The position numbers and the translations under genes are program-made. From the NCBI GenBank assembly GCA_964560005.1, contig CAZLKB010000004.1, forward strand, positions 76,112 to 140,111: a stretch of 64,000 nucleotides of DNA, in the 5' to 3' direction. Each line of letters begins with the position of its first letter. Position 1 is the first letter of the stretch. The stretch comes from an uncultured Gammaproteobacteria bacterium (GTDB taxonomy: Bacteria; Patescibacteriota; Patescibacteriia; Patescibacteriales; GWC2-42-12). Under the pieces are notes generated by a model, which made no database searches, was not told where the DNA came from, and was given only the letters and a program-made list of their open reading frames with translations. This document shows positions 1 to 64,000 of the stretch, piece by piece.

Positions 1-140
1 ATATGATTTGTCGTTGCGAGCGGAAAGCCCTCCTTCTAAAGGAGGGGTAGGGGAGGTTAAATTGTAATGGAATTAATTTAACCCCCTTAATCCCCCTTTT
101 GAAGGGGGACAAAATAAAATCGCTCCCCGCAATGACAAAA
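1..140. repeat. GC-rich composite hairpin element at window edge (possibly partial)
   Basis: Imperfect inverted termini GTCGTTGCGAGCG (10-22) and CGCTCCCCGCAATGAC (121-136) enclose CCCTCC/GGAGGG and CCCCC/GGGGG mini-hairpins. The same building blocks recur elsewhere in the window. Confidence 0.6.
24..63 (+). repeat. 39-bp element AAAGCCCTCCTTCTAAAGGAGGGGTAGGGGAGGTTAAAT, copy 1
   Basis: Its reverse complement recurs at 21807-21845 with one mismatch. Confidence 0.85.
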
Positions 141-163: not shown

Positions 164-1255
164 ATGGAGGATCTAAAATATTGGCTGGCTCTAAGCCAAT
201 TTTATAAATTCGGCCCGGTTAAATTTAAGAAAATAAAAAAATACTTTCCGAATATGGAAACCGCTTTCCGCGCGCCGTTTCAGGAGTATGTCCGAGCCGG
301 GATTGATGAAAAGACGGCCGAAGAATTCACAATTTTTAAGCATCAAATTGAACCAGATCGGCTCTTGGAAAATTTAAACAAGGAAAAAATCAAAACTTTA
401 ACCATTGACGATTCGGCCTATCCAAAACTCCTAAAGCAAATCTACGACCCTCCCCTATTAATTTACTATCGCGGCGAATTGGAAGCTTTTACTGATTTCA
501 TGCTAGCCGTTGTGGGCACCAGAAAATTTACTGCTTACGGACAGCAGGTTACGGAAAAAATAGTTAGGGAGCTGGTGGCCAATCAGTTAACTATCGTCAG
601 TGGCTTGGCCTTAGGCATAGACACGCTGGCGCATCTGGCGGCTGTGGACGCGGGCGGCAAAACCATCGCGGTACTGGGATCCGGACTGGATCAGCAAAGT
701 ATTTTCCCCTCGCAAAACCGCTATCTGGCCGATAAAATAGAAGCTCACGGCGGCCTGGTTTTAACCGAATACGCTCTTGGCACACCGCCATTAAGCCACC
801 ACTTTCCCAGAAGAAACCGCTTAATTTCCGGGCTGTCTCTCGGCACCCTGGTGATTGAAGCCGGAGATAAGTCAGGCGCGGTTATTACCGCTATGCACGC
901 TCTGGATCAAAATCGGGAGGTTTTCGCCATCCCCGGCAATATCTACTCGCCTTACTCGGCCGGCACCAACAGCCTAATCAAAATGGGAGCCAAGCTGATA
1001 GCCGGCGCCAAAGATATCATTGAATCTCTTAATTTAACCGAAGCGGTCGCTTTTACCGAGAATAAAAAAATTATTCCCGAATCGGCTGAGGAAGAATTGA
1101 TTTTGGCCAGTTTAAATTACGAACCGGTTCATGTTGACGAGCTGGTTCGCTTGACAAAGCTTGACACCTCGGTTATAAATAGTACACTTACTATCATGGA
1201 AATGAAAGGAATGATAAAAAATTTGGGCAGTATGCAATATGTACTGGCTAGATAA
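164..1255 (+). CDS. dprA: DNA-processing protein DprA/Smf
   Basis: 363-aa ORF with the DprA core 'VVGTRKFTAYGQQ...IVSGLALGIDTLAHLAAVDAGGKTIAVLGSGLD...RNRLISGLS'. It sits directly upstream of topA, a common arrangement. Confidence 0.85.
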   Translation: MEDLKYWLALSQFYKFGPVKFKKIKKYFPNMETAFRAPFQEYVRAGIDEKTAEEFTIFKHQIEPDRLLENLNKEKIKTLTIDDSAYPKLLKQIYDPPLLIYYRGELEAFTDFMLAVVGTRKFTAYGQQVTEKIVRELVANQLTIVSGLALGIDTLAHLAAVDAGGKTIAVLGSGLDQQSIFPSQNRYLADKIEAHGGLVLTEYALGTPPLSHHFPRRNRLISGLSLGTLVIEAGDKSGAVITAMHALDQNREVFAIPGNIYSPYSAGTNSLIKMGAKLIAGAKDIIESLNLTEAVAFTENKKIIPESAEEELILASLNYEPVHVDELVRLTKLDTSVINSTLTIMEMKGMIKNLGSMQYVLAR

Positions 1256-1268
1256 TCTGGCAAGAACT

Positions 1269-1396
1269 AAATTTAAAATGTAAAAATCAAAATGAAAAAT
1301 GACAGTTTAAAATTTAAAATTATTAATCATTTGGGTAATTAGACATTTTGCATTTTACATTGTCATTTTACATTTTCAGATTTTAACTTTACATTA
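1269..1396. repeat. AT-rich palindromic intergenic module, family A (AAAATGACA / TGTCATTTT arms)
   Basis: The left arm ...TGTAAAAATCAAAATGAAAAATGACAGT... is mirrored by ...CATTGTCATTTTACATTTTCAGATTTTAACTTTACATT. It ends 4 nt before the topA ATG. Confidence 0.85.
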
Positions 1397-1399
1397 TTT

Positions 1400-3625
1400 A
1401 TGAAGCTAGTCATCGTTGAATCTCCAACTAAAGCCAAAACCATTACTAAATTTTTAGGTTCGGATTTTACCGTTGAATCTTCTTTCGGGCATGTCCGCGA
1501 TTTGCCTTTAAGCACTATGGGTATTGAAATTGATAATAATTTTGAACCTAAGTATGTGGTGCCGGCTAAGGCTAAAAAGAATTTAAAAAATCTTCAATTA
1601 TTAGCCAAAAAATCAGATAAAATTATACTGGCAACCGACGAAGACCGAGAGGGCGAGGCTATCGCTTGGCATTTGGCCCAGGCGCTAAAAATCAACGAGG
1701 CCCAAACCGATCGCATAGTTTTTCATGAAATTACCAAACCGGCCATAGAACAGGCCTTAGAGAAGCCCAGAAAAATTGATATGAAACTGGTTGATGCCCA
1801 GCAGGCCAGAAGGATTCTTGACCGCTTGGTCGGCTATGAGCTGTCCCCTTTTTTATGGAAGAAAGTCGCCAAAGGCTTATCCGCCGGCCGCGTGCAATCG
1901 GTCGCGGTGCGCTTAGTGGTTGAACGGGAACGGGAAATTAAAAAATTTAAGACGGATGAATTTTGGACGGTGGAGGCAAGTTTGCAAAACGAGCAGAAGC
2001 TGCCGTTCTCAGCCAGGCTGAATAAAATCGCGGACAAGACGATTGATAAGCTGGAAATAAAAAACCAAGAACAGGCGGAAAAAATATTAGAAGCGCTTAA
2101 CGGGGCAAAATATCTGGTGGCCGACCTGGAAAAAAAACAAACCAAAAAACAGCCGCCTAAGCCATTTACCACCTCCAGCTTACAGCAAACCGCCAATCGC
2201 TGGCTCGGTTTTTCCGCCAAGCAAACCATGATGATAGCGCAGCAGCTTTACGAAATGGGCTTTATTACTTACATGAGAACCGATTCGCTGAATCTGGCTG
2301 ATAAATTTTTAACCGAAACGGCACAATATTTAAAAACTAATTTGGGTGAAAAATACAGTTTAGCCTCGCCGCGCCGCTTTAAAACCAAAGCTAAGGGCGC
2401 TCAAGAAGCCCACGAAGCCATTAGGCCGAGCGAAGCCTCCCGCGCTCCCGAGTCAGTCAGTTCTGATTTAAATCCAAATCAAAATAAATTATATAAATTA
2501 ATCTGGCAGAGAGCCATCGGCTCGCAGATGCCCGAAGCGATTGTTGATACCACTACGGTTGATATTGACGCCCTAGAAACGCCCTATCAATTCAGAGCCA
2601 ACGGCCAAATTGTAAAATTTGACGGCTATCTAAAAATTTATCCCGAGGCAAGCCAGGAAATAGTGCTCCCGGAGATGAAAACAAAAGAAGAGTTGGAGCT
2701 TCTGGATTTAAAAAAGGAGCAGCATTTTACCAAGCCGCCGGCGAGATTCTCGGACGCCGGCTTGGTCAAAGAATTGGAAAAACACGGCATCGGCCGGCCC
2801 TCAACCTACGCGCCGACTATTAACACCATTATTGAACGGAATTATGTTCAGCGCGACGAGAATAAGCGTCTGGCTCCGACCGACATCGCTTTCGTGGTGA
2901 TTGATTTATTGGTTGAGCATTTTCCTAAAATTGCAGACTACGAGTTTACCGCTAAAATGGAAAATGATTTGGATATGATCGCCGAGGGCGAGGTTAAATG
3001 GCAGCCGATTATTAAAGAATTCTATGAACCATTTCACGCCAATCTGGAAAGTAAATATGAAACCATAAACAAAAATGATATTGTCCCGGAAGAGAAATCT
3101 ACCGAAATCTGCGATAAGTGCGGCGCTCCCATGATCGTTAAAACCGGCCGCTACGGAAAATTCCTGGCTTGCAGCGCTTTTCCGGGATGTAAAAATATAA
3201 AATCCATGCCCGGAACCGATCGAGATAAAAACGGCCGAGCTGACAGTAAGGAGATTGACGAACTTAAAGATAAATATAAGACGGAAGTTTGTGATAAATG
3301 CGGCGCGCCTATGGCGGTCAAAGTAGGAAAATTCGGCCCCTTTCTCGCCTGCTCCGCCTACCCTAAGTGTAAAAACATTAAAAGCATCAACGGCGCAGGC
3401 CAGGGAACCGGCGCAACCTGCCCGGTTTGCAAAAAGGGCGAGGTCGTGCAAAAACGCAGCCGCCGCGGCATCTTCTACGCCTGCAACCAATATCCTGCCT
3501 GCAAAACCACCTTCTGGAGCAAACCCACGGGCGAAAAATGCCCGGATTGCTCGAGCCTCTTGATTGAAGACGCGAAAAAAGGCGAAATAAAATGCTCCAA
3601 TAAGGATTGCGGGTATATTAAATAA
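1400..3625 (+). CDS. topA: DNA topoisomerase I with C-terminal zinc-ribbon repeats
   Basis: 741 aa. N-terminal TOPRIM 'LVIVESPTKAKTI...ATDEDREGEAIAWH', the active-site region 'GFITYMRTDS', and four CxxC...CxxC ribbons ('CDKCGAPM...CSAFPGC'). Confidence 0.95.
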   Translation: MKLVIVESPTKAKTITKFLGSDFTVESSFGHVRDLPLSTMGIEIDNNFEPKYVVPAKAKKNLKNLQLLAKKSDKIILATDEDREGEAIAWHLAQALKINEAQTDRIVFHEITKPAIEQALEKPRKIDMKLVDAQQARRILDRLVGYELSPFLWKKVAKGLSAGRVQSVAVRLVVEREREIKKFKTDEFWTVEASLQNEQKLPFSARLNKIADKTIDKLEIKNQEQAEKILEALNGAKYLVADLEKKQTKKQPPKPFTTSSLQQTANRWLGFSAKQTMMIAQQLYEMGFITYMRTDSLNLADKFLTETAQYLKTNLGEKYSLASPRRFKTKAKGAQEAHEAIRPSEASRAPESVSSDLNPNQNKLYKLIWQRAIGSQMPEAIVDTTTVDIDALETPYQFRANGQIVKFDGYLKIYPEASQEIVLPEMKTKEELELLDLKKEQHFTKPPARFSDAGLVKELEKHGIGRPSTYAPTINTIIERNYVQRDENKRLAPTDIAFVVIDLLVEHFPKIADYEFTAKMENDLDMIAEGEVKWQPIIKEFYEPFHANLESKYETINKNDIVPEEKSTEICDKCGAPMIVKTGRYGKFLACSAFPGCKNIKSMPGTDRDKNGRADSKEIDELKDKYKTEVCDKCGAPMAVKVGKFGPFLACSAYPKCKNIKSINGAGQGTGATCPVCKKGEVVQKRSRRGIFYACNQYPACKTTFWSKPTGEKCPDCSSLLIEDAKKGEIKCSNKDCGYIK

Positions 3626-3660: not shown

Positions 3661-3878
3661 TCCGGTTTTTAGCCGAAGCGGGCAAATGCTTATAGAATTT
3701 CAAAGAACTCTACCCCCACCTTTCATTGCCTCCTGGCGGGAAAATGGACTAAAAGACCACACCGTACACCTAGTTATTATTATTATTGATCACATTCATA
3801 AGTTTAGCGCCGATTTATGCGCCTAGTGTTTAGGTTCACCCTATCTGACCATCGCGCCAGGGGGTTTGTCGTAAATAA
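3627..3878 (-). ncRNA. Candidate ~250-nt small RNA of unknown class
   Basis: On the minus strand it is bounded by a TTGACA-N16-18-TATATA/TATATT promoter (3880-3908) and by the hairpin plus T-run at 3626-3660. It is more GC-rich than other spacers. A long-range pairing CCCCCTGGCG / CGCCAGGAGG is possible. There is no credible ORF and no match to tmRNA, SRP or RNase P signatures. Confidence 0.35.
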
Positions 3879-3879
3879 A

Positions 3880-3908
3880 ATATATAATATGAGCAATAAG
3901 CTTGTCAA
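3880..3908 (-). promoter_or_regulatory. Sigma70-like promoter (TTGACA, then TATATA/TATATT at 16-18 nt)
   Basis: The minus-strand reading is TCTTGACAAGCTTATTGCTCATATTATATATTTT. The -35 is the complement of 3903-3908. Confidence 0.5.
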
Positions 3909-3911
3909 GAT

Positions 3912-3952
3912 AAAAAAAGCGGAAACGCCACGAAGCGCGTTTCCGCTTTTTT
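3912..3952. terminator. Bidirectional intrinsic terminator
   Basis: A perfect 10-bp stem GCGGAAACGC (3919-3928) / GCGTTTCCGC (3937-3946), flanked by an A7 run on one side and a T6 run on the other. Confidence 0.85.
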
Positions 3953-3965
3953 CGTATCTTCATTT

Positions 3966-4051
3966 TTATTCCTCTTTTTTCGCCCTCCGGCCGCCGTCTT
4001 TCTTTTTTTCCGTCAGACCCCTCACAACTTCCACCAATTTTTTTATGCCTT
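3966..4051 (-). pseudogene. Orphan duplicate of the last 28 codons plus stop of the 104-aa gene at 5227-5541
   Basis: 85 of 86 bp are identical to 5227-5312, with one C/T difference. It begins exactly at the stop codon and lacks the rest of the gene. Confidence 0.7.
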
Positions 4052-4075
4052 AGCCTAAAATTTTAAGTGGAAAAA

Positions 4076-5226: not shown

Positions 5227-5312
5227 TTATTCCTCTTTTTTCGCCCTCCGGCCGCCGTCTTTCTTTTTTTCCGTCAGACCCCTCATAACTTCCACCAATT
5301 TTTTTATGCCTT
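5227..5312 (-). repeat. 86-bp direct repeat, copy B (the genuine 3' end of the 104-aa gene)
   Basis: Matches 3966-4051 with a single mismatch. The two copies are 1261 bp apart. Confidence 0.9.
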
Positions 5313-5541
5313 CGCCAATCAAGAACAAATAAGACGCGCTATGCTCGATTTTTTCTTTTAGAGAATCAATAATTGTGTCGACCTTATGCAGCCGGTCGCG
5401 CATCTCCTTGATAATCTGGGAAGATTGCTTTAATATCATGGCCAGATAAAAAATCGCCCAGCAGGTAAAAATAGCTAGACCTAAAATTGAAATAGAGATG
5501 ACGATGTATAATAGGTCTTGGCTGTTGTTGAGTAGAGACAT
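5227..5541 (-). CDS. Small membrane protein (one N-terminal TM helix, charged C-terminal helix)
   Basis: 104 aa. 'LLYIVISISILGLAIFTCWAIFYLAMIL' followed by an amphipathic tail. Confidence 0.55.
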   Translation of the reverse strand: MSLLNNSQDLLYIVISISILGLAIFTCWAIFYLAMILKQSSQIIKEMRDRLHKVDTIIDSLKEKIEHSASYLFLIGEGIKKLVEVMRGLTEKKKDGGRRAKKEE

Positions 5542-5717
5542 AGAATTAAATTTAAAGTTTAAAAATCAAAATGCAAAATGCTAGCTCCGCTAGCACCCCG
5601 CAGATGCGGGGTCATTGCAGAGCAATGACAATGCAAAATTTAAAATTATTTATATTTAGACATTTTGCATTTTTAATTGTCATTTTAAACTTTGATATTT
5701 ACATTTTGCATTAATAA
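5542..5717. repeat. Family A palindromic module with GC mini-hairpins nested at its centre
   Basis: The AT-rich arms AAAATCAAAATGCAAAATG / ATTGTCATTTTAAACTTTGATATTTACATTTTGCATT flank CCCCGC-AGAT-GCGGGG and GTCATTGC-AGA-GCAATGAC (5596-5629). Confidence 0.85.
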
Positions 5718-6059
5718 CTAATTTGATTTTAACTTTTTGCTTTTTTCACCCATATCCTCAACCTCCACCTTAACCCCGCCCGCTTTTGCCGCAAACCAAT
5801 TATATATTCCCGCCATCATATAACCTAAACCCCAGCCCAATAAAGCGGTTAAGAGCGCGGTTAATACCCCTATTAATATTCCTTCGCCGAGGTTAAATAA
5901 AACTACCAGAACAGCCGAACCCAGAAAATCCTGACGCAGGATAATGTTGACTATAGTGTAAACCGCCACTATCATGGCCATAACGAAGCCGACCAAACCG
6001 TAAAGCAAAGCCGTTATTCTGGCAAACGAATTTTTGTTAATTTTTATTATTTCTTTCAT
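5718..6059 (-). CDS. Small integral membrane protein
   Basis: 113 aa with three predicted hydrophobic helices and a lysine-rich tail. Confidence 0.55.
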   Translation of the reverse strand: MKEIIKINKNSFARITALLYGLVGFVMAMIVAVYTIVNIILRQDFLGSAVLVVLFNLGEGILIGVLTALLTALLGWGLGYMMAGIYNWFAAKAGGVKVEVEDMGEKSKKLKSN

Positions 6060-6064
6060 AGAAA

Positions 6065-6141
6065 ACGAATTTAATGCGAATTAAAAGCGAATAATTTTAT
6101 CTTAGCTCAAATTATATTCGTATTAATTCGATTTAATTCGT
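6065..6141. repeat. AT-rich palindromic module (AATTCG / CGAATT words)
   Basis: ACGAATTTAATGCGAATTAAAAGCGAATA is mirrored by TATTCGTATTAATTCGATTTAATTCGT. Confidence 0.8.
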
Positions 6142-6170
6142 GCCTTGGTTCGCTATTTATTATATCACTT

Positions 6171-7061
6171 TTATCTAAAAACCGTAAATAATTTTAACCA
6201 ATCCTCAACCGATAATTCCTGGGCTCTAATTTTTCCGTTAAAACCGGCATTCTCGATGATACTTTGCGCTTCAGACTGCTCCATTTTCAACCCGGCGGCT
6301 AAATTATTTTTTAACATTTTCCGCCTTGAGCTAAAACCAAACTTTACCAGCCTAAAAAAATCTTTCTCTCTATTCTTTCCCCCTTGATACCCGCCCGACT
6401 GAACAGTCGTTCGGGCGGGAAGGGGGTGAGGGGGATTAATTTTTATCTTCACAATCGCCGAATCCACTTCTGGCTGCGGCCAGAAATATTCTTTTGGCAC
6501 CAACCGGACAATTTCTGCCTTGGCGTAAAACTGCACTGACACCGAAAGCAAACTCATCTTCCCGGGCTTGGCAGTAATCCTTTCCGCCACTTCTTTTTGC
6601 AGCATCAGCACCATTAACTCGGGTTTATTTTCTGCTTCCAAAAACTTCCTCAAAAAAATTGAAGTAATATTATAGGGTAAGTTTGCAACAATTTTAAAAT
6701 TGGATAATTGAAAATTGTTTGAAAATTGATAATTGAAAATTGAAAATTTCAATATATCTTCATTCACCACCTCCACATTTTTTATACTCTTTGCTGTTAA
6801 GCCGATCTGCAGAACTTCCGCCAATCTGTCATCCAACTCTACAGCCACTACCCGCCCGGCGTGAACCGCCAGTTTGGCGGTCATGAAACCCAGGCCGGGC
6901 CCGACCTCCAAAACCGTATCACTAGGCTTTAAATCCGCCGCCGCCACTATCTGGTCATAGATTTCTTCCCTAATTAAAAAATTCTGCCCTTTTGAACGGG
7001 CAGGCTTGATGTTATAAAGGCGGCAGAGTTCCTTGGTTTTTTCCAATAGGTCTGTATGCAT
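6171..7061 (-). CDS. rsmA: 16S rRNA (adenine1518/1519-N6)-dimethyltransferase with two repeat-derived inserts
   Basis: 'KGQNFL', the SAM site 'VLEVGPGLGFMT', 'ANLPYNI' and 'FSSRRKML'. Extra segments are 'SIFNYQFSNNFQLSNF' (nt 6690-6755) and 'PPHPLPARTTVQSGGYQGGK' (nt 6379-6434). Confidence 0.85.
   Translation of the reverse strand: MHTDLLEKTKELCRLYNIKPARSKGQNFLIREEIYDQIVAAADLKPSDTVLEVGPGLGFMTAKLAVHAGRVVAVELDDRLAEVLQIGLTAKSIKNVEVVNEDILKFSIFNYQFSNNFQLSNFKIVANLPYNITSIFLRKFLEAENKPELMVLMLQKEVAERITAKPGKMSLLSVSVQFYAKAEIVRLVPKEYFWPQPEVDSAIVKIKINPPHPLPARTTVQSGGYQGGKNREKDFFRLVKFGFSSRRKMLKNNLAAGLKMEQSEAQSIIENAGFNGKIRAQELSVEDWLKLFTVFR
6379..6434. repeat. GC-rich hairpin element in frame inside rsmA
   Basis: CCCCC...CCCGCCCGAC-TGAACAGTCG-TTCGGGCGGG...GGGGGTGAGGGGG. 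The architecture matches the intergenic G/C-run hairpins. Confidence 0.7.
6690..6755. repeat. Family B (TGAAAATT) word repeat in frame inside rsmA
   Basis: ATTGGATAATTGAAAATTGTTTGAAAATTGATAATTGAAAATTGAAAATTTC, the same words as the intergenic family B modules. Confidence 0.75.
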
Positions 7062-7080
7062 TTTTTTTACTTCTTAATTC

Positions 7081-7605
7081 TTACTTCTGACTTTTTCTAA
7101 ATCCTGCTATAATAAATTTATCAAGCTTTTCCAGCCAGGCATAAATTTTATTGGTAATCCCCGGTCCAACCGCGCAAGCCGAGCCATAACAGCCTCCGAC
7201 AGAGGCTAAAGAAGCGTCCGGAGAAATATACATTGAATTTGTCGTTCCGCCGTAAATCAGCTGACCGCCCGACGATAAACCAGTCTGGCTTGCCGCTATG
7301 ATAGACAATAATAAAGGCGGCTGGCCGGTACCACCGGCCGACGATCCATTAACATCTTCATACAAACTGCAATCTGCCGAGTCAACTAAATTGCAAAGAG
7401 TTCCTCCGGTGCAAGTATAACCGCTGGTGGTGCAGGGCGTAACTATCACATTAGTTAAACCAACCTGGAAAGGCATGCCGCCGGCCGCGCCGGCGAAATT
7501 ATTCCAGCGCCAAGACACCACCGATTTATGCATTATCAATCCGCCCATTACGAACACTAACAGCATGATGACAGAACCGATAGTTATTTTTTTTAGCATT
7601 TTCAT
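7081..7605 (-). CDS. Secreted or membrane-anchored G/S/T/C-rich hypothetical protein
   Basis: The ORF is 7081-7632. The likely start is M10 'MKMLKKITIGSVIMLLVFVMGGL', a signal/anchor sequence. It has several Cys residues. Confidence 0.5.
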   Translation of the reverse strand: MKMLKKITIGSVIMLLVFVMGGLIMHKSVVSWRWNNFAGAAGGMPFQVGLTNVIVTPCTTSGYTCTGGTLCNLVDSADCSLYEDVNGSSAGGTGQPPLLLSIIAASQTGLSSGGQLIYGGTTNSMYISPDASLASVGGCYGSACAVGPGITNKIYAWLEKLDKFIIAGFRKSQK

Positions 7606-7632: not shown

Positions 7633-8625
7633 ATGAAGTCAAAAATACTTATTACCTCCATAATAGGATTAAGCGCTTCGGCCCTGCTCGGCACCAGTGC
7701 TTTGCCGGCAACAGCGCAAGGTAGTTTAGCGCAAAAATTATCCGGCCGGATCTTACTGCAGGTTGAAGCCAAGGGCGAAGCCTGGTACATTAACCCGACC
7801 GACCAAAAAAGGTATTTTTTAGGCCGGCCGGCTGATGCCTTTACTCTAATGCAACGGCTGGCTTTGGGCGTCAATAACGCCAATTTAAGTAAAATCGCCG
7901 TGGGCCTATTGGATTATTCGGGCGCGGACGACGATGGCGATGGCTTGCCTAATAATTTAGAACAGGCCATCGGCACCGACCCGGCTAAAACCGATTCCGA
8001 CAATGACGGGCACGAAGATAAGACCGAAATTATAAATAATTACAGCCCGTTGGGTACGGAGCGAGTTGCTATTGACCAGAGTTTAATAAAACAGCTGCGC
8101 GGAAAAATTTTATTGCAAGTTGAAAGCCTTGGCGCCGGTTGGTATTTAAACCCGGCCGACAATAAAAAATATTATTTAGGCAGACCCGATGATGCCTTCG
8201 CGATTATGCGCCATTTGGCATTAGGCATCACTAATAATAATTTAAATCAAATAACCATCGGTCAACCGCCTATTACGCCTCCCCCCGACCTACCTCCGGC
8301 GATTCCGCCGGAAGACCCGCCCGTTAACCGGGATTCCGTGCTTGATCAGGCCGCCGCGAGCATCAGAAGCGGCAACTCTACCGAAGTTCAATCATTCTTT
8401 ATTGAATCAATGCGCAAATCAATTGAATATGCGGTTGAACATTTAAGCGCGGAAAGCCGGCTCCTGTTAGCTAACCTTTTATCCGGCGCTAAATTATCCG
8501 GTTCAAGTGAGACGGAAAAAATATATTCAAATAAAGCTTATTTCTCCTTAAGAGGCACCGAGGTCTCGCTTAATTTCCGAGTGGTCAAACAGTCCGACGG
8601 CAGTTGGTTAATAGCGAATTTATAA
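7633..8625 (+). CDS. Secreted protein with a duplicated ~55-aa module and thrombospondin-type-3-like Asp-rich repeats
   Basis: Signal peptide. The module 'GRILLQVEAKGEAWYINPTDQKRYFLGRPADAF..' (nt 7729-7896) repeats as 'GKILLQVESLGAGWYLNPADNKKYYLGRPDDAF..' (nt 8086-8253). Also 'DDDGDGLPNNLEQAIGTDPAKTDSDNDG'. Confidence 0.6.
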   Translation: MKSKILITSIIGLSASALLGTSALPATAQGSLAQKLSGRILLQVEAKGEAWYINPTDQKRYFLGRPADAFTLMQRLALGVNNANLSKIAVGLLDYSGADDDGDGLPNNLEQAIGTDPAKTDSDNDGHEDKTEIINNYSPLGTERVAIDQSLIKQLRGKILLQVESLGAGWYLNPADNKKYYLGRPDDAFAIMRHLALGITNNNLNQITIGQPPITPPPDLPPAIPPEDPPVNRDSVLDQAAASIRSGNSTEVQSFFIESMRKSIEYAVEHLSAESRLLLANLLSGAKLSGSSETEKIYSNKAYFSLRGTEVSLNFRVVKQSDGSWLIANL

Positions 8626-8903: not shown

Positions 8904-11900
8904 TTACTTTACTACAATATTCACCAACCTCCCCTTCACAAAAATCACTTTCTTTACTTCTTTGCCTTCAAGCCACTTCTTTATTTTTTCACTTTCTAAA
9001 GCAATTTTTTTAGCGTCTTCTTCGCTAATATTAACACTAACCTTCGCAGTATCTCTGACTTTTCCGTTAACCTGAATAACCAGATTAATCATTTCGTCGT
9101 GTGCTAATTTCGGATCATACTTAGGCCAGGTTTCTTTAAAAATACTTTGTTGATTGCCCAGTTTAACCCACAGTTCTTCCGCCAGATGGGGCGCGAACGG
9201 CGAGAGAACTATTAAAAATTTCTCCGCAGCCGCGCGCGGCATGGAATCTAACTTACCCGCGAAATTCATAAAAATCATCATTTGGGAGATGGCAGTATTA
9301 AATTTCATAGCTTCAATATCCTCGGTAACCTTTTTTATAGTTTTATGAAGTAATTTTGGCATGCCCTCGGGAACATTCTGACTAGGCTTTTTTCCGCTAC
9401 CGCCCGCCTGCCGGCCTACCTGTCCGATAGGCAGGCTAGACAAGCAATCAACAAATTTAACATTTATATAAAATTCAAAAATCTTTTCCAAAAATCTTTT
9501 CGCGCCCGCCAGTCCATCCGTACTCCAAGCGATAGCTTGATCAAACGGCCCCATGAACATTTCATAAACGCGCAAGGCGTCTGCGCCGTACTGTTTAACG
9601 ATATCATCTGGATTAATGACATTACCCTTTGATTTTGACATCTTCACTCCGCCCTCGGCTAAAATCATGCCATGCGAAGTCCGCTTGGCGTAGGGTTCGC
9701 TGGTCGGCACCAGGCCCAGGTCAAACAAAAATTTATGCCAAAAACGAGAGTATAGAAGATGTAAAGTCGTATGTTCCATGCCGCCGTTATACCAATCAAC
9801 CGGGATCCAATATTTAAGCTTTTTAAAATCAGCGAATGCTTTTTTGTTTTTTGGATCAGTGTAGCGCAAATAATACCAGCTTGAACCGGCCCAATTCGGC
9901 ATGGTATCGGTTTCTCGCTTGGCCTCGCCGCCGCAGCGCGGACACTTAACATTGACCCAGTCGGTAATGGCCGCTAGCGGCGATTCGCCCGTGTTGGTCG
10001 GTTGATATTTCTCCACCTTAGGCAATTCAACCGGCAAGTCTTTTTCCGGAATCGGCACATAACCGGTATTTTTCGCGCGCCCTACCCATTCCAACAATTC
10101 CGGAATTTGCTCGCCGAGAAAATGCCCGAAACCGTCCCACACTTCAAAATCCCATTCCTTAGGAATATGATCGTGGGTATAGAGCGGCACTGAATCGTCG
10201 TCTCTAGAAATCACTATTCTGATTTTATCGGCATATTCGGTAACTTTATTTAGGTCTATTTTCTCAAGCCAAAATTTCTGAAGAGCGTCTATATCCGAGC
10301 CTGTCCATTCCTGGCGCATTCTTTCCCAATCTCTGGGCGACAATTCTCCGATCGCCGAACCGATAAGCAATAAATGTCCAATTTTCTTTTTTGCCTTTAA
10401 TAAAAGATGCAAGGCGGCCTTACTGCCTAAACTATGCCCGATCACAATATCATCCGGGCTGAAATCTTTAATCAGAGGCAAAAGTTCTTTCATCCACTTT
10501 TTCAAATCAGGGTGGTCGGCGGTGGTCATGGTCGGTAGCCTAACCTCAAAACCGCGTTTCTCTAATTCATTTTTCAGCCAGGGTTTCCATTCACTGTCGC
10601 CCCGCCCCTCAAAGCCGTGGATTATCAAAACTTTTTGTTTAACCTTTTTACAATTTTCGCAGAATACCACCGGAATAGGCTCGCCCCAATAATGCTGACG
10701 CGAAAAAACCCAGTCGCGTAGTTTATAATTTACTTTTCTCGCCCCAATTTTTTCCTTTTCCAGCCACTCAGCCATTTTTTCACGGGCTTCAGCTGAATTG
10801 AGGCCGTTATAATCGCCAGAATTAAATAAAATACCATCGTTCGTATAAATTTTTCTTTTAATAAACTTATCAAAAAGATACTTGTGCAGTTCATCCGCAA
10901 CTTTTTGTTCCGCCTCTTTTTCGCTTAACCACTCAACCTTAAATTTATTTTGTTCGTTTTTCTCCAATTTTTGCTCAATTTTTTCCTCATCAACCAAGTC
11001 AAAAAGAAAACCCGTTGCTTCAATATTTCGCTGCACATTTTTTGAATGAGCGAAATAGTGATGATGTATTTTCTCGGATTGTTCCACTAATTTCACATTT
11101 TTATAACCCGTCTCTTCTTTGATTTCCCTTAAAGCGCACTTTAAAGCATCTTCTTTACTATTTAAACCGCCGCCAATAAATAAATTTCCGCCCAAATTTG
11201 ATCCCCAATTAATAGAAAGTAATTTTTTGGTTTTAGGATTCCTGACGATTGCGACAATACTCTCTCTGAATTCTTCTTTTTCCCGAGGTTTGCCTGTAAT
11301 CGGCTCAATCGTATAAACAATTTTCAAGCCGTACTTTTTGGCAAAATCAAAATCCCTCTCGTCGTGCGCCGGAACAGCCATGACTGCGCCAGTGCCGTAA
11401 TTGACCAAAACATAATCAGCAATCCAAACCGGAATTTCCTCGCCATTCAACGGATTGATCGCCTTAATTCCTTTTAATTCTACTCCGGTTTTCTCTTTTA
11501 CCTCTGCCGCTCTCTCTAAATCAGACTTCTCTTTCGCAGCTTCCAAATATTTTTTTACCTCTGACCAATTTGTTATTTTAGCCCTTAATTCTTGGGTTAA
11601 CTCATGCTCTGGAGATAAAACCACATAGGTGCATCCAAAAATTGTATCAAGACGAGTCGTAAAAACTTTAATTCGTAATTCGTAATTCTTAATTCTAAAT
11701 TCTATTTCCGCTCCTTCCGACCGCCCGATCCAATTCTGCTGTTGAATTTTTATTTTTTCCAGATACTCCAGCGGCCGCCGGCCCAATATTCTGGGCAGAA
11801 GATTTTCTTGGAGCGCCTGGCGGACTTTTCTATAGCGCACCTCGTCTGGTTGTTCCGATTTATATAAACCGGTTTTAGGATCTTTAATTAACGCTTCGGT

Positions 11901-16535: not shown

Positions 16536-16689
16536 AATTTTCAATTTTCAAGTACCAATTTTCAATGAATTTTCAATTTACAATTTACAATTTACAATGA
16601 AAACTTTTTCTTTGTTTGAAAATTAATTCATTGGAACTTCATTGAAAATTGGGATTTGAAAATTTATTGATATTTAACTTTACATTTTT
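16536..16689. repeat. AT-rich palindromic module, family B (AATTTTCA / TGAAAATT words)
   Basis: AATTTTCAATTTTCAAGTACCAATTTTCAATGAATTTTCAATTTACAATTT... is mirrored by ...TTCATTGAAAATTGGGATTTGAAAATTT. It ends in TTTAACTTTACATTTTT directly before the porA ATG. Confidence 0.85.
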
Positions 16690-17931
16690 ATGAATAAACC
16701 CCAGATGCTAGAGGGCTCACGCGCCATCGCCCTGACTATCAACAATATTAAACCCACGGTTATTTCCGCTTATCCGATCACGCCGCAAACGCATATCGTC
16801 GAAGACCTGGCTAAATTTAAAGCCGACGGCCAAGTTGAATACGAGTATGTTAGGGCTGAATCGGAATTTGCCGCCGCTTCAATCGTGGCCGGCGCCTCGG
16901 CGGCCGGGGTCAGGACTTATAGCGCCACCAGTTCGCAAGGGCTTCTCCTAATGGCTGAAGTGATTTTTAATATCGCCGGCATGCGCTTGCCCGTGGTGAT
17001 GACTTGCGCCAATCGCGCGGTTTCCGCGCCGATTAATATTTGGAACGATCAGCAGGATGTGATGGCTATTAGAGACGCGGGCTGGATTTTACTTTTTGCC
17101 GAAAATCACCAGGAAGCGGTTAATCAGCATATTATGGCTTTTAAAATCGCCGAGCAGCTTAAAATACCGGTAATGGTCAATGTAGACGGGTATATTATGA
17201 CCCATACTTATGAACCGGTGATCATTCCTACGGCCGAACAGATAAAAAAGTATTTGCCTGATTATAAACCAGCGGCCGGACAATTTTTAGACACGAAAAA
17301 CCCGGCAACCTTAGGCGCCCTGGCCACGCCGGCTCATTATCTGGAAATTCGCCAGGAACTGCACGACGACCTAATCGCCAGCCTTAAAACCATTAAACAA
17401 GAATATGACAGTTTTAATAAAATCATTCCTTCATTAAAAATTAAAAATTACAAAATTAAAAATTTTAGTAAAACTTCAATAATAGTTGATACTGGGTTGT
17501 TTGAATATACCGGTCCTAAATCTCCACGAACAGTGCTGGTTGCCATGGGTTCGGTCGTCGGCACTATTAAAGACACTGTCAGCAACTTCCCCCCTGACAA
17601 GGGGGGCAAGGGGGGTTTTTCCTCTGGCGGAAAAGATGAGAGCAAGGTTGGCATTTTAAAAATCAAAGCTTTTAGGCCTTTTCCGGCAGATCAAATCCTT
17701 AAAATAATTAAACCGGCCAAAAATATTGCCGTGATAGATAAATCCATCTCCTTAGGTCATATCGGAACGCTAGCCTCAGACATTAAAGCCGTAGCTCAAG
17801 GAAAAATCAATGCTAATATTTCCAGTTTCGTCGTCGGCCTGGGGGGGCGCGATATTACTAAAGAGATAATTAAAAAAATTATTAAATTAGCCAATAGAAA
17901 AAGCGACGGAGCGCAATTTATTGGAAAATAA
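16690..17931 (+). CDS. porA: Pyruvate:ferredoxin oxidoreductase alpha subunit with repeat-derived inserts
   Basis: 'EGSRAIALTI...AYPITPQT.IVE', typical of PorA. Extra segments are 'SLKIKNYKIKNFS' (nt ~17434-17466) and 'FPPDKGGKGGFSSGG' (nt 17589-17615). Confidence 0.9.
   Translation: MNKPQMLEGSRAIALTINNIKPTVISAYPITPQTHIVEDLAKFKADGQVEYEYVRAESEFAAASIVAGASAAGVRTYSATSSQGLLLMAEVIFNIAGMRLPVVMTCANRAVSAPINIWNDQQDVMAIRDAGWILLFAENHQEAVNQHIMAFKIAEQLKIPVMVNVDGYIMTHTYEPVIIPTAEQIKKYLPDYKPAAGQFLDTKNPATLGALATPAHYLEIRQELHDDLIASLKTIKQEYDSFNKIIPSLKIKNYKIKNFSKTSIIVDTGLFEYTGPKSPRTVLVAMGSVVGTIKDTVSNFPPDKGGKGGFSSGGKDESKVGILKIKAFRPFPADQILKIIKPAKNIAVIDKSISLGHIGTLASDIKAVAQGKINANISSFVVGLGGRDITKEIIKKIIKLANRKSDGAQFIGK
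17589..17615. repeat. CCCCCC/GGGGGG mini-hairpin in frame inside porA
   Basis: CCCCCCTGACAAGGGGGGCAAGGGGGG. Confidence 0.7.
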
Positions 17932-18067
17932 ATTAATTTTCAATTTACAATTTTCAATGAATCTACAATTAATTAATTTTCAAACAAATTTTTTGTAGCT
18001 GTTTGAAAATTTAAACATTAAATCATTGAACATTGTTAGAAAATTGAAAATTGAAAATTGAAAATTT
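17932..18067. repeat. Family B palindromic module
   Basis: AATTTTCAATTTACAATTTTCAATGAA... is mirrored by ...GAAAATTGAAAATTGAAAATTGAAAATTT. It forms the left border of the block inserted in the por operon. Confidence 0.85.
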
Positions 18068-19861: not shown

Positions 19862-20051
19862 AAATAAATTTGATATCCTAAACAAGCATAAAGTTTTTTT
19901 TACGCGAGAACAGGTTGAAGACGCTGTGGCCACGCCGGACAAACCGGGCAGAAAAGCCGGATTTCTAACAATTAAAAAGGATAATATTAAAGTTATTTAT
20001 AAAAAAGAGGCTGGAGTGATTAAAATAATCACTTTTTATCCAGTTAAATAA
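19836..20051 (+). CDS. DUF4258-like small protein (putative toxin component)
   Basis: 71 aa. The pattern 'F.KYA..K...... ...V..A...PD...... ...IKVIYKKEAGVIKIITFYP' resembles the DUF4258 family. Confidence 0.5.
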   Translation: MLYFTKYAENKFDILNKHKVFFTREQVEDAVATPDKPGRKAGFLTIKKDNIKVIYKKEAGVIKIITFYPVK

Positions 20052-20167
20052 TCCGAATACTACAATTGATAAGCGAATACTACGAATAAAATGTTTAAGG
20101 TAAAAATTAGGTGAATAGTTTTTGTAGTATTTGGATATCATTTGTAGTATTCGGATTATAATATTAT
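20052..20167. repeat. AT-rich palindromic module (GAATACTAC words)
   Basis: AATCCGAATACTACAA ... TTGTAGTATTCGGATT is a perfect 16-bp inverted repeat, with further inner word copies. Confidence 0.85.
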
Positions 20168-20377: not shown

Positions 20378-20546
20378 CTAATTTTCAATTTTCAATTTCT
20401 AAACAATTTCCAATGTTAAAATTATTCAATTTTTTAAACAGTCGCAATATATTAGTTTGAAAATTAGAGCATTAAGTCATTAAAAATTGTTTGAAAATTG
20501 AAAATTGGGATTTGAAAATTAATAAATTTGGATAAAAAAGTAAAGT
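20378..20546. repeat. Family B palindromic module
   Basis: AATTTTCAATTTTCAATTTC... is mirrored by ...TTGTTTGAAAATTGAAAATTGGGATTTGAAAATT. It shares GAAAATTGGGATTTGAAAATT with 16536-16689 and forms the right border of the block inserted in the por operon. Confidence 0.85.
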
Positions 20547-25864: not shown

Positions 25865-26004
25865 AATTTTCAATTCTCAATTTCCAATTTTCAAACAATG
25901 ACCAATGAATCAATGACTAAATTTTCAAAAAAAATGCTGTTGAATTAATTGAAAATTATAAAATTGAAAATTCATTGAAAATTGATAATTGAAAATTGAA
26001 AATT
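25865..26004. repeat. 140-bp family B palindromic element, dispersed copy 1 (between rpoB and rpoC)
   Basis: Roughly nine-tenths identical by eye to 48465-48604. Shared core: TTTTCAAACAATGACCAATGAATCAATGACTAAATT...TTAATTGAAAATTAT...ATTGAAAATTCATTGAAAATTG. Confidence 0.9.
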
Positions 26005-29611: not shown

Positions 29612-29706
29612 AGGGATACGAATTACAAATTTAATACAAATTTACAAATATTTTATAAACTCTATTTAAAGTATTTGTAAATTCGTAACAGATTTGTAAT
29701 TCATAT
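29612..29706. repeat. AT-rich palindromic module, family D (TACAAAT / ATTTGTA words)
   Basis: ACGAATTACAAATTTAATACAAATTTACAAATA is mirrored by TATTTGTAAATTCGTAACAGATTTGTAATTC. It lies directly upstream of the rpoB start. Confidence 0.8.
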
Positions 29707-31665: not shown

Positions 31666-31787
31666 GACTAATAATGTAAAATTTAAAAATCAAAATGGAA
31701 AATGACAATTAAAAATGAAAAATGTCTGAATTTATTATTTTAAATTTTACATTGTCATTTTACACTTTGAGATTTACATTTTTAATT
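31666..31787. repeat. Family A palindromic module
   Basis: ATGTAAAATTTAAAAATCAAAATGGAAAATGACAAT... is mirrored by ...ACATTGTCATTTTACACTTTGAGATTTACATTTTT. Confidence 0.85.
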
Positions 31788-32792: not shown

Positions 32793-32872
32793 GTCATTCC
32801 GGCCTCCGCCAGCTCGCCTCGCTGGAGCTTTAGCGAAGCGGGCTGGCGGAGAGCCTGCCTACCGGCAGGCAG
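32793..32872. repeat. GTCATTCC-type GC-rich composite hairpin element
   Basis: GTCATTCCGGCCTCCGCCAGC...GCTGGCGGAG and GCCTGCCTACCGGCAGGCAGG hairpins. Confidence 0.75.
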
Positions 32873-32880
32873 GTAAATTA

Positions 32881-32947
32881 GAACAATTAGACATTTTACA
32901 TTTTAAACTTTCATTTTCCATTTTGATATTTTAATTTTAAACTTCCC
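32881..32947. repeat. Family A half-module
   Basis: TTAGACATTTTACATTTTAAACTTTCATTTTCCATTTTGATATTTTAATTTT. Confidence 0.7.
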
Positions 32948-33523: not shown

Positions 33524-33531
33524 AATATTTA

Positions 33532-33610
33532 CCCCACAAATCTACAAATCGACAACAAATAATACAAATACTATTCGTGATATTCGTAGCGAATTTGTAG
33601 CTTTGTGGGG
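33532..33610. repeat. Family D palindromic module
   Basis: CCCCACAAATCTACAAATCG ... CGAATTTGTAGCTTTGTGGGG. Confidence 0.8.
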
Positions 33611-33644
33611 TGATTACGATTAACCGGCTAAAACTATTATTTTA

Positions 33645-38343: not shown

Positions 38344-38421
38344 ATAATACAGTTATAAAGTTGAAAGTTTATAAAGTTATTTGTTTATTGACTTTATAAC
38401 TTTACAAACTTTATAAACTTT
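38344..38421. repeat. AT-rich palindromic module, family C (ATAAAGTT / AACTTTAT words)
   Basis: GTTATAAAGTTGAAAGTTTATAAAGT is mirrored by ACTTTATAACTTTACAAACTTTATAAAC. Confidence 0.85.
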
Positions 38422-48464: not shown

Positions 48465-48604
48465 AATTTTCAATTCTCAATTTTCAATTTTCAAACAATG
48501 ACCAATGAATCAATGACTAAATTCTCAAACAGAAATGCTATTTATTAATTGAAAATTATGACATTGAAAATTCATTGAAAATTGGTACTTGAAAATTGAA
48601 AATT
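48465..48604. repeat. 140-bp family B palindromic element, dispersed copy 2 (between the ABC ATPase and permease genes)
   Basis: See 25865-26004. Confidence 0.9.
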
Positions 48605-51354: not shown

Positions 51355-51454
51355 GTCATTCCCGCGTAGGCGGGAATCCATAATTGTGACCCGAGTTATA
51401 TTTCTGGATTCTCTGGTTTCCTGCCTACCGGTAGGCAGGAAACCAGAGAATGAC
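51355..51454. repeat. GTCATTCC...GAATGAC GC-rich composite hairpin element
   Basis: GTCATTCCCGC-GTAG-GCGGGAAT and CTCTGGTTTCCTGCCTACCGGTAGGCAGGAAACCAGAG hairpins. Confidence 0.8.
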
Positions 51455-53993: not shown

Positions 53994-54117
53994 GACAATA
54001 ATGTAAAGTTTAAATCTTAAAGTGTAAAATGACAGTTTAAAATTAAAAATGTCTAATTATTATAATTTTACATTTTGCATTGTCATTTTACATTTTGAGA
54101 TTTACATTTTAAATTTT
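53994..54117. repeat. Family A palindromic module
   Basis: AATGTAAAGTTTAAATCTTAAAGTGTAAAATGACAGT is mirrored by GCATTGTCATTTTACATTTTGAGATTTACATTTTAAAT. Confidence 0.85.
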
Positions 54118-54894: not shown

Positions 54895-55000
54895 AGGATT
54901 AATTTTCAATTTACAATTTTCAAACAAAGTCGCTATTTATCTCATTGATAATTTAGTCATTGAAAATTCATTGAAAATAAAAATTTGAAAATTTAAAATT
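54895..55000. repeat. Family B palindromic module
   Basis: AATTTTCAATTTACAATTTTCAAACAA... is mirrored by ...GTCATTGAAAATTCATTGAAAATAAAAATTTGAAAATTT. Confidence 0.85.
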
Positions 55001-62993: not shown

Positions 62994-64000
62994 TTACTTC
63001 TTAGTTTTTACTTCTACTTTAACTTTTTTCCCCCTGACTTTAGCCGCGTAATACCCGGTCAGTATCGCCGCTACGCTCAAAATTTCCTCTTCACTTTTTT
63101 CCTCGCCCAACTTTAGCTCGCTCATTTTTAATTCCGTCTGCACATTTATTTCTTTGCTTTCATTTTTGATTCTTACTTTTGACTTCTTACTTCTTACTAA
63201 GCTCGTCGGTCCGGCTTCATCGCCCAAATCAATTAAAGTATCTCCGGCTTTAGCCAGCTTCTCCAGTTTTTGATTCTCTTTTTCATTCCTGCCGATCACC
63301 AATAACACTTTTCTCTCCGCTTCGGCATGCAGCCAAAAAATTCTACCGTATTTTAACAACTCTATATCGCTGCCCCGGCACTCGGACCAATATTCCAGCA
63401 TCTGCATCAGTTTCTCGCTAAAAACCCGATCGGTTAAAAGGCAGCCGCCGCTCGGATTCTCATATTCTTTTATATCATATTTCTTTAATAATTCAAATTG
63501 CGGTTTTCGCGACCGGCCGCTAATATCTAATAGCCGGCTCCGGTCAACCTTGCCTTCTCTTTCCGGATCAGATTCGTCTAATAATTTTGCCGAGAGCGGC
63601 CTGACTAATCTGCCCTTTAGGCCCGCGGCTTTTTCCACTATCTTCAAAGCTTCTAAATTCTGCGACATCGGCCGTTCGCCCAAGACTTCTCCGGTGGCGA
63701 TGAAATCAAAATCGTATATACCCCCTTTAGCAAAGGGGGGTTGGGGGGATTTAATGCCCCCCTTCAAAGGGGGGGGGAGGGGAGTTAAATATTCCGCCGC
63801 CTTTTTCAACATCATGGCGTGGCAGTCAATGCAGGGATTCATGTTTTTACCATAACCGTATTTAGGATTCTTTACCATTTTTAAATGTTCATCGGAAAAA
63901 TCTATTTCTATAAATTTCACGCCCAGTTGCTCGGCCGCTCTTCGCGCCTTATCTGTATCAAAAAAATAACTTTTAAAACTTACCCCGGTTACTTCAATCC
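62994..64000 (-). CDS. PP-loop/AANH-superfamily ATPase-like protein (thiouridylase-like), 5'-truncated by the window edge
   Basis: The frame stays open upstream of the GTG at 63920 ('IEVTGVSFKSYFFDTDKARRAAEQLG' reads through to nt 64000). 'NPCIDCHAMM' and 'ATGEVLGERPMSQ'. An in-frame insert 'PLPPPLKGGIKSPQPPFAKGG' lies at 63721-63786. Confidence 0.5.
   Translation of the reverse strand, partial: IEVTGVSFKSYFFDTDKARRAAEQLGVKFIEIDFSDEHLKMVKNPKYGYGKNMNPCIDCHAMMLKKAAEYLTPLPPPLKGGIKSPQPPFAKGGIYDFDFIATGEVLGERPMSQNLEALKIVEKAAGLKGRLVRPLSAKLLDESDPEREGKVDRSRLLDISGRSRKPQFELLKKYDIKEYENPSGGCLLTDRVFSEKLMQMLEYWSECRGSDIELLKYGRIFWLHAEAERKVLLVIGRNEKENQKLEKLAKAGDTLIDLGDEAGPTSLVRSKKSKVRIKNESKEINVQTELKMSELKLGEEKSEEEILSVAAILTGYYAAKVRGKKVKVEVKTKK
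63721..63786. repeat. CCCCC/GGGGG mini-hairpin pair in frame inside the PP-loop ATPase gene
   Basis: CCCCCTTTAGCAAAGGGGGG and CCCCCCTTCAAAGGGGGGGG, the same type as at 80-110 (CCCCCTTTTGAAGGGGG). Confidence 0.75.

Follow-up and report, generated by a model that had tools for sequence, protein, structure and literature searches.

In-frame short DNA repeats at two segments of a patescibacterial ksgA gene, one of them holding a dispersed 30-nt hairpin

Can short DNA repeats occupy an intact gene for a conserved enzyme in frame, and are they then kept as parts of the protein or as DNA? This question is raised by the rsmA/ksgA gene (here ksgA) in a 64,000-nt stretch, called the window throughout, of contig CAZLKB010000004.1 (GenBank assembly GCA_964560005.1, positions 76,112 to 140,111), from a bacterium recorded as an uncultured gammaproteobacterium and placed by GTDB in Patescibacteriota. 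A reading of the window made from its letters alone (the sequence-only reading) had proposed that an AT-word repeat and a GC mini-hairpin, both of families that populate spacers, had colonized this essential gene without breaking its frame. We compared two segments of the gene, site 1 and site 2, with those of orthologs and traced the hairpin at site 2 in other genomes. On balance, we favor the explanation that both are permissive segments filled by short-repeat families that behave as DNA-level entities.

Two repeat-encoded segments of ksgA

The open reading frame (ORF) described as an intact ksgA gene deserves that description. Its product matched the Pfam family PF00398 (RrnaAD) over the full length (residues 22 to 294; 193.3 bits against a cut-off of 24; E value, 5e-57) and KsgA of Bacillus subtilis (6IFS) with an E value of 1.8e-47. 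The S-adenosylmethionine (SAM)-binding VGPGLG, catalytic ANLPYN, and C-terminal FSSRRK motifs are all present, and they are invariant or nearly so across the ortholog alignment (A1). The closest relatives are proteins of 270 to 349 amino acids (aa) from metagenome-assembled genomes (MAGs), some of which are labeled Patescibacteria or Falkowbacteria. KsgA is conserved universally, yet it is dispensable in Escherichia coli, and the term "essential" was therefore too strong.

We further characterized the protein using an AlphaFold2 model built from 39 orthologs (mean predicted local distance difference test score [pLDDT], 84; predicted template modeling score, 0.82). The core has a pLDDT above 85, and values below 50 occur solely at residues 23 to 25, 114 to 117, and 215 to 227, the latter two ranges falling within the two repeat-encoded segments. 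Site 1 connects the strand that follows motif III (DILK, the SAM-adenine motif) to the catalytic NLPY strand (motif IV), and site 2 is the linker by which the last strand of the methyltransferase domain leads into the C-terminal domain at its first helix. From the model, the two segments are expected to be exposed loops, as had been anticipated from the sequence, and the predicted structure indicates no function for the inserts. It is reasonably likely that ksgA in the window is a working gene with two surface segments that are permissive in sequence.

The GC-rich block at site 2 was taken at first for a single element, although it consists of two nested ones (Table 1), neither of which is mainly a spacer repeat of the window. 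The outer element, which we call the shell, has the pattern C5-T.A-C5-TT/loop/AA-G5, with stems CCCCCTT at 6420 to 6426 and AAGGGGG at 6379 to 6385. In its loop, exactly between CTT and TAT, sits a 30-nt hairpin (the 30-mer) with stems CCCGCCCGA at 6411 to 6419 and TCGGGCGGG at 6390 to 6398. Residues P210 to K229 are encoded by 6375 to 6434, and the composite folds as DNA with -19.3 kcal/mol (z = -4.7). The related locus L001 carries a 100% identical 30-mer at the same ksgA site. In the relatives L079 and L201, the shell is empty (CCCCCTAACCCCCTT^TATCAAGGGGG and CCCCCTATCCCCCTT^TGTCAAGGGGG, respectively, where the caret marks the position of the 30-mer in the window and L001); the fuller contexts, with a slash at the same point, are AATCCCCCTAACCCCCTT/TATCAAGGGGGAAAA, encoding NPPNPLYQGGK, for L079 and AATCCCCCTATCCCCCTT/TGTCAAGGGGGAAAA for L201. 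The whole site 2 element is missing from KsgA of B. subtilis and from the relative L080, which has neither of the two ksgA inserts. As far as aligned sequences can, these sites show that 30 nt were inserted precisely into the loop of the shell hairpin, and the proposal that the GC segment is an in-frame insertion is upheld.

Its assignment to a spacer-populating family is not. The exact 48-mer of site 2 occurs once in the window, and four of the five C5/G5 mini-hairpins in the window are genic, with only one in a spacer. One of the genic copies lies in ORF 16690-17931, which by eye looks PorA-like. The shell is present at both site 1 and site 2 in the L079 gene, in differing frames, and other GC hairpins fill the same shell loop in the orthologs P0020 and P0006. 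At site 2 of L077, there are nested GC hairpins in frame, CCCTGTTAAAT(CCCAATCTCGC-GAAA-GCGAGATTGGG)(GCTTCGCT-GGAT-AGCGAAGC)ATTTAACAGGG, and L078 has two CTCTCC/GGAGAG hairpins in frame. Besides, alignment A1 holds the peptide DFGELSRTELGTKAGQA at site 2 of P0020 and after motif I in P0050, as well as SPREIPxISRGAKRISRG at a third KsgA position, after AERITA, in P0013 and P0058. Such repeated peptides at differing positions suggest other GC-rich insert families and more permissive sites.

Site 1 is built of (ATTTTCA)n words with ATTATCA and AACA variants and encodes the peptide (K)FSIFNYQFSNNFQLSNF; residues S107 to F122 (SIFNYQFSNNFQLSNF) are encoded by 6696 to 6743. The 39-mer at 6708 to 6746 recurs at 18026 to 18064 with three mismatches and at 25964 to 26002 with two mismatches, where the chance expectation is 0, and the AT segment is thus homologous, in frame, to an arm of spacer family B, as the sequence-only reading had it. 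We counted 45 occurrences of AATTTTCAA in the window against 4.5 expected, and all copies outside ksgA except one cluster in six spacer palindromes. These are imperfect, are about 90 to 140 bp long, and each fill a spacer; the one with the closest match to the ksgA arm (25865 to 26004) folds as DNA with -26.2 kcal/mol (z = -4.35). A k-mer survey of the window returned the ksgA block as the sole long genic block of a multicopy spacer-type repeat, the remaining genic blocks being internal tandem repeats of ORF 33645-37889. Forward (ATTTTCA)n contains no stop codon in any frame, and three reverse words (TGAAAAT) give TGA in all three frames. Because only the forward-word orientation is codable, the ksgA ORF holds half of a palindrome and not a whole one.

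The AT segment does not amount to a net insertion, contrary to the original proposal. In B. subtilis KsgA, the stretch from DVLK to VVANLPY contains a loop that is just as long, and we therefore regard site 1 as a replaced loop. Among 120 ksgA orthologs compared at both sites, the site 1 loop ranges from 7 to about 60 residues and is nearly always filled by translated short DNA words or C5/G5 hairpins (e.g., FSIFNFQFSNNFQ, ITNYELRNY, IKIQPPLFPPYQGGGY, TPLTPLLKGG, and LEIGNWKLKIGNF). Both sites are a mosaic of translated words and hairpins in this set; a neighbor-joining tree of the 120 orthologs, with a resolution too weak to date gains and losses, served to display that mosaic only. Segments in common with the window were found only in ksgA orthologs of Patescibacteria-type MAGs and not in those of unrelated phyla.

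Pairwise codon alignments of ksgA indicated on which level the elements are conserved. Third-codon-position identity was 0.48 to 0.54 over the remaining gene and 0.88 to 1.0 inside the elements: the window agreed with L001 at 18/20 third positions of site 2, with L079 at 10/10 of the shell, and with L077 at 15/17 of site 1 (0.49 in the remaining gene). Between genomes with different element types, the site identity was at background or lower. The window and L001 share 45 consecutive identical bases over the 30-mer and the 3' shell, with surrounding coding DNA that is about 73% identical, and this comparison is unbiased by DNA search because L001 was found by protein homology. At the level of sequence, these identities show that the inserts are conserved as DNA and not as protein parts. 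Furthermore, there are four roughly equidistant relatives, which show 78 to 80% aa identity when the two sites are set aside. By the B arm, the window would be joined to L201; by the 30-mer, it would be joined to L001; and L080 has neither. Since the states conflict among equidistant relatives, there must have been an independent gain, loss, or exchange of at least one element, by homoplasy or recombination.

Table 1. Coordinates of ksgA, its repeat-encoded segments, and related repeats in the window
Feature	Position	Strand	Product or remark
rsmA/ksgA ORF, intact	6171..7061	minus	296 aa
Site 1, single stop-free arm of a family B heptamer-word palindrome	6696..6749	minus	between DILK and NLPY
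Site 2, composite GC block	6375..6437	minus	encodes NPPHPLPARTTVQSGGYQGGK
30-nt hairpin element CCCGCCCGAACGACTGTTCAGTCGGGCGGG	6390..6419	minus	9-bp stem, 12-nt loop; PARTTVQSGG, P215-G224
Shell, 5' half AATCCCCCTCACCCCCTT	6420..6437	minus	encodes NPPHPL
Shell, 3' half TATCAAGGGGGAAAG	6375..6389	minus	encodes YQGGK; AAGGGGG pairs with CCCCCTT
C5/G5 mini-hairpin, in frame in ORF 16690-17931	17589..17606	plus	NFPPDKGGKGG
Two C5/G5 mini-hairpins, in frame in ORF 62994-63920	63721..63777	minus	LTPLPPPLKGGIKSPQPPFAKGG
Spacer copy of the C5/G5 shell family CCCCCTTAATCCCCCTTTTGAAGGGGG	82..108		
Family B spacer palindrome	16536..16664		
Family B spacer palindrome	17935..18066		includes 39-mer match
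Family B spacer palindrome	20380..20520		
Family B spacer palindrome	25865..26004		right arm 37/39 identical to the ksgA arm
Family B spacer palindrome	48465..48604		
Family B spacer palindrome	54901..54993		

The 30-mer in other genomes

A search for the exact 20-nt core of the 30-mer in species-representative genomes gave 75 loci with 76 copies, against about 1 locus expected by chance; two more core matches, without the flanking stem, look like chance. By record title, the hosts include the Patescibacteria groups Nomura-, Pacei-, Sacchari-, Adler-, Ryan-, Yanofsky-, Taylor-, and Liptonbacteria, as well as Bacteroidota (among them a 2.15-Mb Bacteroidales contig), an Ignavibacteria MAG, and a Nanoarchaeota MAG. 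One of the Bacteroidetes-labeled hosts has a type IX secretion system (T9SS) sorting domain. When the contexts were aligned, the element had sharp ends, CCCGC...GCGGG, and unrelated flanks; across the 76 sites, the flanks showed neither a consensus nor a target-site duplication, and the stem did not continue into them. An inverted repeat of at least 7 bp was found in the flanks of 12 of the 76 copies (about 4.4 expected), and five copies had flanks of short-period tandem words (0.7 expected). To the extent that flanking sequence can tell, this shows a tendency of the 30-mer to nest in other repeats, as it does in ksgA. We also observed 30-mers inside heptamer-word arrays at L035 (enolase), L053, and L019/L033, in Patescibacteria (AAATTCC/AAATCCC in the enolase gene) as well as in Bacteroidota, with (CCAGTAC)n and (GGCAGTA)n. 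A search for split elements, with left and right halves around a cargo, returned just loop-length variants of 35, 36, and 42 nt.

Most copies lie in genes: 54 of the 76 (71%) fall within open frames that span 200 aa or more. The 30-mer is ten codons long, and five of its six frames are stop free, whereas frame R2 contains TGA. The genic copies were distributed over the frames as F0, 20 (PARTTVQSGG); F1, 5 (RPNDCSVGR); F2, 2 (PERLFSRAG); R0, 13 (PARLNSRSGG); R1, 14 (RPTEQSFGR); and R2, 0. Under indifference to the stop, none in that frame would have a probability of (5/6)^54, or about 5e-5. Because no genic copy is in the TGA frame, the element is read through and neither bypassed nor removed; these frame statistics show, insofar as sequence can, that the ribosome translates it. 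The insert peptides predicted from the elements described here are these five and FSIFNYQFSNNFQ. In genes, 27 copies are forward and 27 reverse, a balance that argues against a function as a sense-strand RNA. Ten hosts were confirmed by Pfam, of which nine are housekeeping genes (purA, typA, a recJ-like DHH protein gene, def, a MurD-like ligase gene, rpoD, eno [enolase], tsaD, and pgk) and one encodes a T9SS-tail protein. Further hosts, read by eye, are mfd, gatA, alr, uvrC, tgt, metG, gltX, ddl, pilB, and efp. In the assembly of L030, the frame of alr shifts at the 30-mer, possibly by a homopolymer error or because the gene is a pseudogene.

Origin of the inserts and comparison with known repeats

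Our preferred explanation would run as follows. A single arm of an (ATTTTCA)n palindrome would have filled site 1, and a C5TT/AAG5 mini-hairpin would have filled site 2, with the 30-bp hairpin unit then inserted in its loop. As near-neutral, disordered loops, the inserts would owe their high nucleotide conservation to having recently been copied, converted, or inserted from the repeat pool and not to selection on KsgA. The 30-mer itself may be a nonautonomous element moved in trans, with some preference for preexisting hairpin loops and word arrays. The mover might be a single-strand, hairpin-recognizing transposase of the HUH/Y1 type, or the element might be captured at breaks made by a hairpin nuclease. 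More tentatively, and at odds that we would put well below even, the 30-bp hairpin CCCGCCCGA-N12-TCGGGCGGG may be a minimal mobile element that is active and spreads horizontally. It would have been shaped to persist within genes, with a length that is a multiple of three and five open frames, would prefer hairpin loops and word arrays, and would move between Patescibacteria- and Bacteroidota-type genomes in a manner unlike that of known transposase-linked hairpins or miniature elements, possibly via hairpin-nuclease breaks; the layered ksgA inserts would then stem from successive rounds.

Several results weigh against this account. The B arm is present near base for base in ksgA of L077, L078, and L201, and B words occur nowhere else within these loci of 15 to 21 kb (56 kb of flanks in total). 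These loci do not support the direction from spacer repeat to gene that the sequence-only reading had assumed, and the B arm may predate the expansion of spacer copies in the window genome. In addition, (ATTTTCA)4 arrays are frequent in unrelated metagenome contigs, which makes an in-place origin of site 1 hard to exclude. The exact core of the 30-mer reaches five copies per genome at most, and few variants were seen (1 to 3 mismatches, or the longer units with extra loop bases); all 75 loci were picked by the exact core, so that copy age and decay are beyond judgment. The 20-mer core had no match in a viral contig collection, and BLAST of the 30-mer against phage records and plasmids gave partial chance matches alone. 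The few copies per genome and their absence from the viral, phage, and plasmid records searched offer no route by which the element might cross phyla. All-against-all clustering of the 1,538 ORFs of the 75 loci gave housekeeping families only and no recurrent linked gene, and Y1_Tnp homologs were found in 2 of the 75 loci (L009 and L051, 2 to 4 kb away), which is no more than chance.

A Y1/IS200-like transposase was rejected as the mobilizer, as neither adjacency nor enrichment was seen at the loci compared; tblastn of such a transposase against the window found no homolog. In L077, which is without the 30-mer, two Y1_Tnp (IS200/RAYT-like) genes flank ksgA at 6880 to 7539 and 10258 to 10632, and the first of them is followed by GC hairpins of its own (AAGCCACTCGGTGGCTT...).

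The alternative that comes nearest to our explanation concerns the AT segment, which might have arisen in place by heptamer slippage and template switching against native codons, with the same mutational process making words everywhere and no move from spacer to gene. We consider this possible and clearly the less likely course. It would suit the fact that L077, L078, and L201 carry the arm while their 56 kb of flanks are free of B palindromes, of which the window has six in 64 kb, and it would suit the varying number of words among orthologs. Read in reverse complement, the words match the flanking native codons ILK (ATATTGAAA) and KIV (AAAATTGTT), as slippage and template switching would have it, and site 1 has a local fold of -11.8 kcal/mol (z = -3.45). 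A metagenome scan with TTTTCAATTTTCAATTWTCAATTTTCAA, a query for the site 1 arm that proved too generic, returned more than 120 loci; most of these were unrelated organisms' plain (ATTTTCA)n arrays, and only one locus (L167) resembles a ksgA site by its flanking codons. Nevertheless, the ksgA arm has the higher-order word order AATTTTCAATTTTCAA-TTAT-CAATTTTCAA in common with the spacer copy at 25964 to 26002 (37/39), and orthologous arms are nearly identical synonymously although the genes are saturated there. Other orthologs carry wholly different word families or C5/G5 hairpins, which looks like replacement and not like gradual growth.

The same excess of nucleotide identity over the synonymous background, together with strong folds and the finding that nearly every ortholog has a hairpin or word array of one kind or another in the linker between the domains, might instead point to nucleic acid signals selected in ksgA, for protein binding, mRNA stability or processing, or ribosome pausing where the domains meet. 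We judge such signals improbable: the site sequences are unrelated between orthologs, and L080 has none; the 30-mer lies in both orientations equally, at arbitrary places in unrelated genes; its stem variants are mismatches and not compensatory pairs (GCAGG in 16 copies); and an Rfam 15 search of 6000 to 7200 at permissive thresholds reached 25.9 bits at best against a threshold of 74. Adaptive peptides in KsgA, such as lineage-specific ribosome contacts, have in their favor that peptides of the FSIFNFQFSNNFQ type occur in at least 13 of the 120 orthologs, but conservation reaches third codon positions, copies elsewhere that lie in other frames yield other peptides from the same DNA, the model predicts disorder for both segments, and close orthologs lack the inserts, so that this explanation is very unlikely. 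No more credit is due to the idea that the inserts are left untranslated, through ribosomal bypass or removal from the mRNA. GC-rich hairpins in coding sequence do recall the mobile GC clusters and "byp" elements of yeast mitochondrial genes and the insert of T4 gene 60, and the AT-rich hosts are a further likeness. The byp and gene 60 inserts are skipped by the ribosome and may hold stops or shift the frame; the frame and stop statistics of the 30-mer differ from theirs in showing read-through. Besides, its known genic lengths all keep the frame, ksgA has no matching take-off and landing codons (CTT before and TAT after), and 30 nt is too small for a self-splicing intron. Hairpins can also cause errors in long-read assembly, as the frameshift in alr of L030 may illustrate, and yet an assembly or sequencing artifact is barely conceivable here, since assemblies made independently in many studies show the same features in frame, at orthologous positions whose flanks have diverged; to our knowledge, they match no known adaptor.

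Among known repeats, the Rickettsia palindromic elements (RPEs; Ogata et al. 2000, reviewed in PMC10969869), which are dispersed palindromic repeats in frame in housekeeping genes, come closest to our inserts. Both are dispersed palindromes in frame in unrelated housekeeping genes of small, reduced genomes and are translated at permissive protein sites. The multicopy character of a family was found here too (six B palindromes, 75 loci of the 30-mer, and 5 window loci of the shell), as were in-frame copies with empty orthologous sites (L079 and L201, with 54/76 copies in long ORFs). In contrast to RPEs, which are about 100 to 150 bp long and confined to Rickettsia, the unit of 30 bp is five times smaller, has a low copy number, and occurs in Patescibacteria, Bacteroidota, and others, and the ksgA inserts are layered, from words to shell to hairpin. 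The 30-mer thus works like an RPE without being one, set apart by its size and host taxa.

Repetitive extragenic palindromic (REP) elements, associated with REP-associated tyrosine transposases (RAYTs; Y1/HUH), lie outside genes in many copies, bear GTAG or CGTC as a tag at one end, and are found on the flanks of a RAYT gene (PMC3733652). Like the 30-mer, they are nonautonomous GC-rich hairpins of 20 to 40 bp without target duplication, and nesting in palindromes is common. The 30-mer differs in that it is 71% genic, has at most 5 exact copies per genome, and starts with CCCGC and ends with GCGGG; no GTAG or CGTC was found at its end and no consensus in its flanks, and no Y1 neighbor recurred among the 75 loci. 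Its 9-bp inverted termini are reminiscent of miniature inverted-repeat transposable elements, yet target duplication is missing, and at 30 bp the unit falls short of the roughly 50 to 500 bp of those elements. The short tandemly repeated repetitive (STRR) heptamers of heterocystous cyanobacteria are tandem heptanucleotide intergenic repeats, with several families per genome. The window differs from them in taxon and words and in having palindromes of about 130 bp that fill spacers, single arms of which are translated in genes. The coding palindromes of Nematomorpha mitochondria are reported to be inverted repeats of up to 284 bp in protein genes, translated with both arms coded (PMC6649704); they differ from ours, in which the GC hairpins are short and just one arm of the AT words is codable.

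Taken alone, the ksgA case is a new example of a known phenomenon, and the 30-nt in-frame hairpin is apparently a distinct, undescribed variant. Our literature search found no description of its 16-mer core or of the five encoded peptides, which is weak evidence of novelty as much of the literature is not searchable, and no description of such elements was found in the literature on repeats in the candidate phyla radiation (CPR)/Patescibacteria.

Other repeats of the window and biological meaning

Some word palindrome lies in nearly every spacer of the window. Those of family A, with the words TTTTACA, TTTTGCA, and TGTCATT, are at 1269 to 1398, 5554 to 5731, 31673 to 31787, 32880 to 32939, 53997 to 54122, and 59963 to 60155, and a copy is also present in L001 at 7646 to 7746. 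The family TACGAAT/AATTCGTA is at 6042 to 6160, directly downstream of ksgA, and at 20048 to 20159, 29616 to 29706, and 33526 to 33616, and two more are AAGTTATAAAGTT (38351 to 38420, 58174 to 58255, and 61184 to 61242) and AATTTTGAA (62175 to 62283). Heptamer words also occur in frame at 11666 to 11709 (EIEFRIKNYELRIK in a 1,380-aa ORF), at 30958 to 30992 (VKSSKLKVQSQ in ORF 30214-31665), and at 17437 to 17466 (SLKIKNYKIKNF in ORF 16690-17931). We further noted a perfect palindrome of 22 plus 22 nt at 51408 to 51451 (ATTCTCTGGTTTCCTGCCTACC/GGTAGGCAGGAAACCAGAGAAT) and a motif, CTGCCTACCGG(C/T)AGGCAG, that recurs at several places, including 32855 to 32872 and 41194 to 41204. About 70 nt, CCTCTTTTTTCGCCCTCCGGCCGCCGTCTTTCTTTTTTTCCGTC...CAATTTTTTTATGCC, are doubled between the region of ORF 3817-4053 (3943 to 4053) and the 3' end of ORF 5227-5541 (5227 to 5310), which looks like a duplicated gene fragment. 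The 1,414-aa ORF 33645-37889 has tandem internal repeats at 36702 to 37504 with a period of about 123 nt and encodes a repeat-domain protein. A few kilobases from ksgA, at 164 to 3625, there are ORFs as long as dprA (363 aa) and topA (741 aa) of the relatives; as ORFs of these lengths lie near ksgA in the window, L001, L079, and L201, conserved synteny is suggested, judged by ORF length.

For annotation and phylogenomics, common inserts inflate similarity: the 30-mer raised the protein P0002 to the top homolog match. If our explanation is right, reduced CPR genomes would bear selfish or self-propagating micro-repeats that rewrite the surface loops of core proteins, the smallest of them a 10-codon hairpin that is also found in Bacteroidota. 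The 30-mer is a concrete, searchable marker toward the enzyme that moves such hairpins. The finding would also bear on how conserved proteins gain new loop sequence and on gene flow between ultrasmall bacteria and other phyla.

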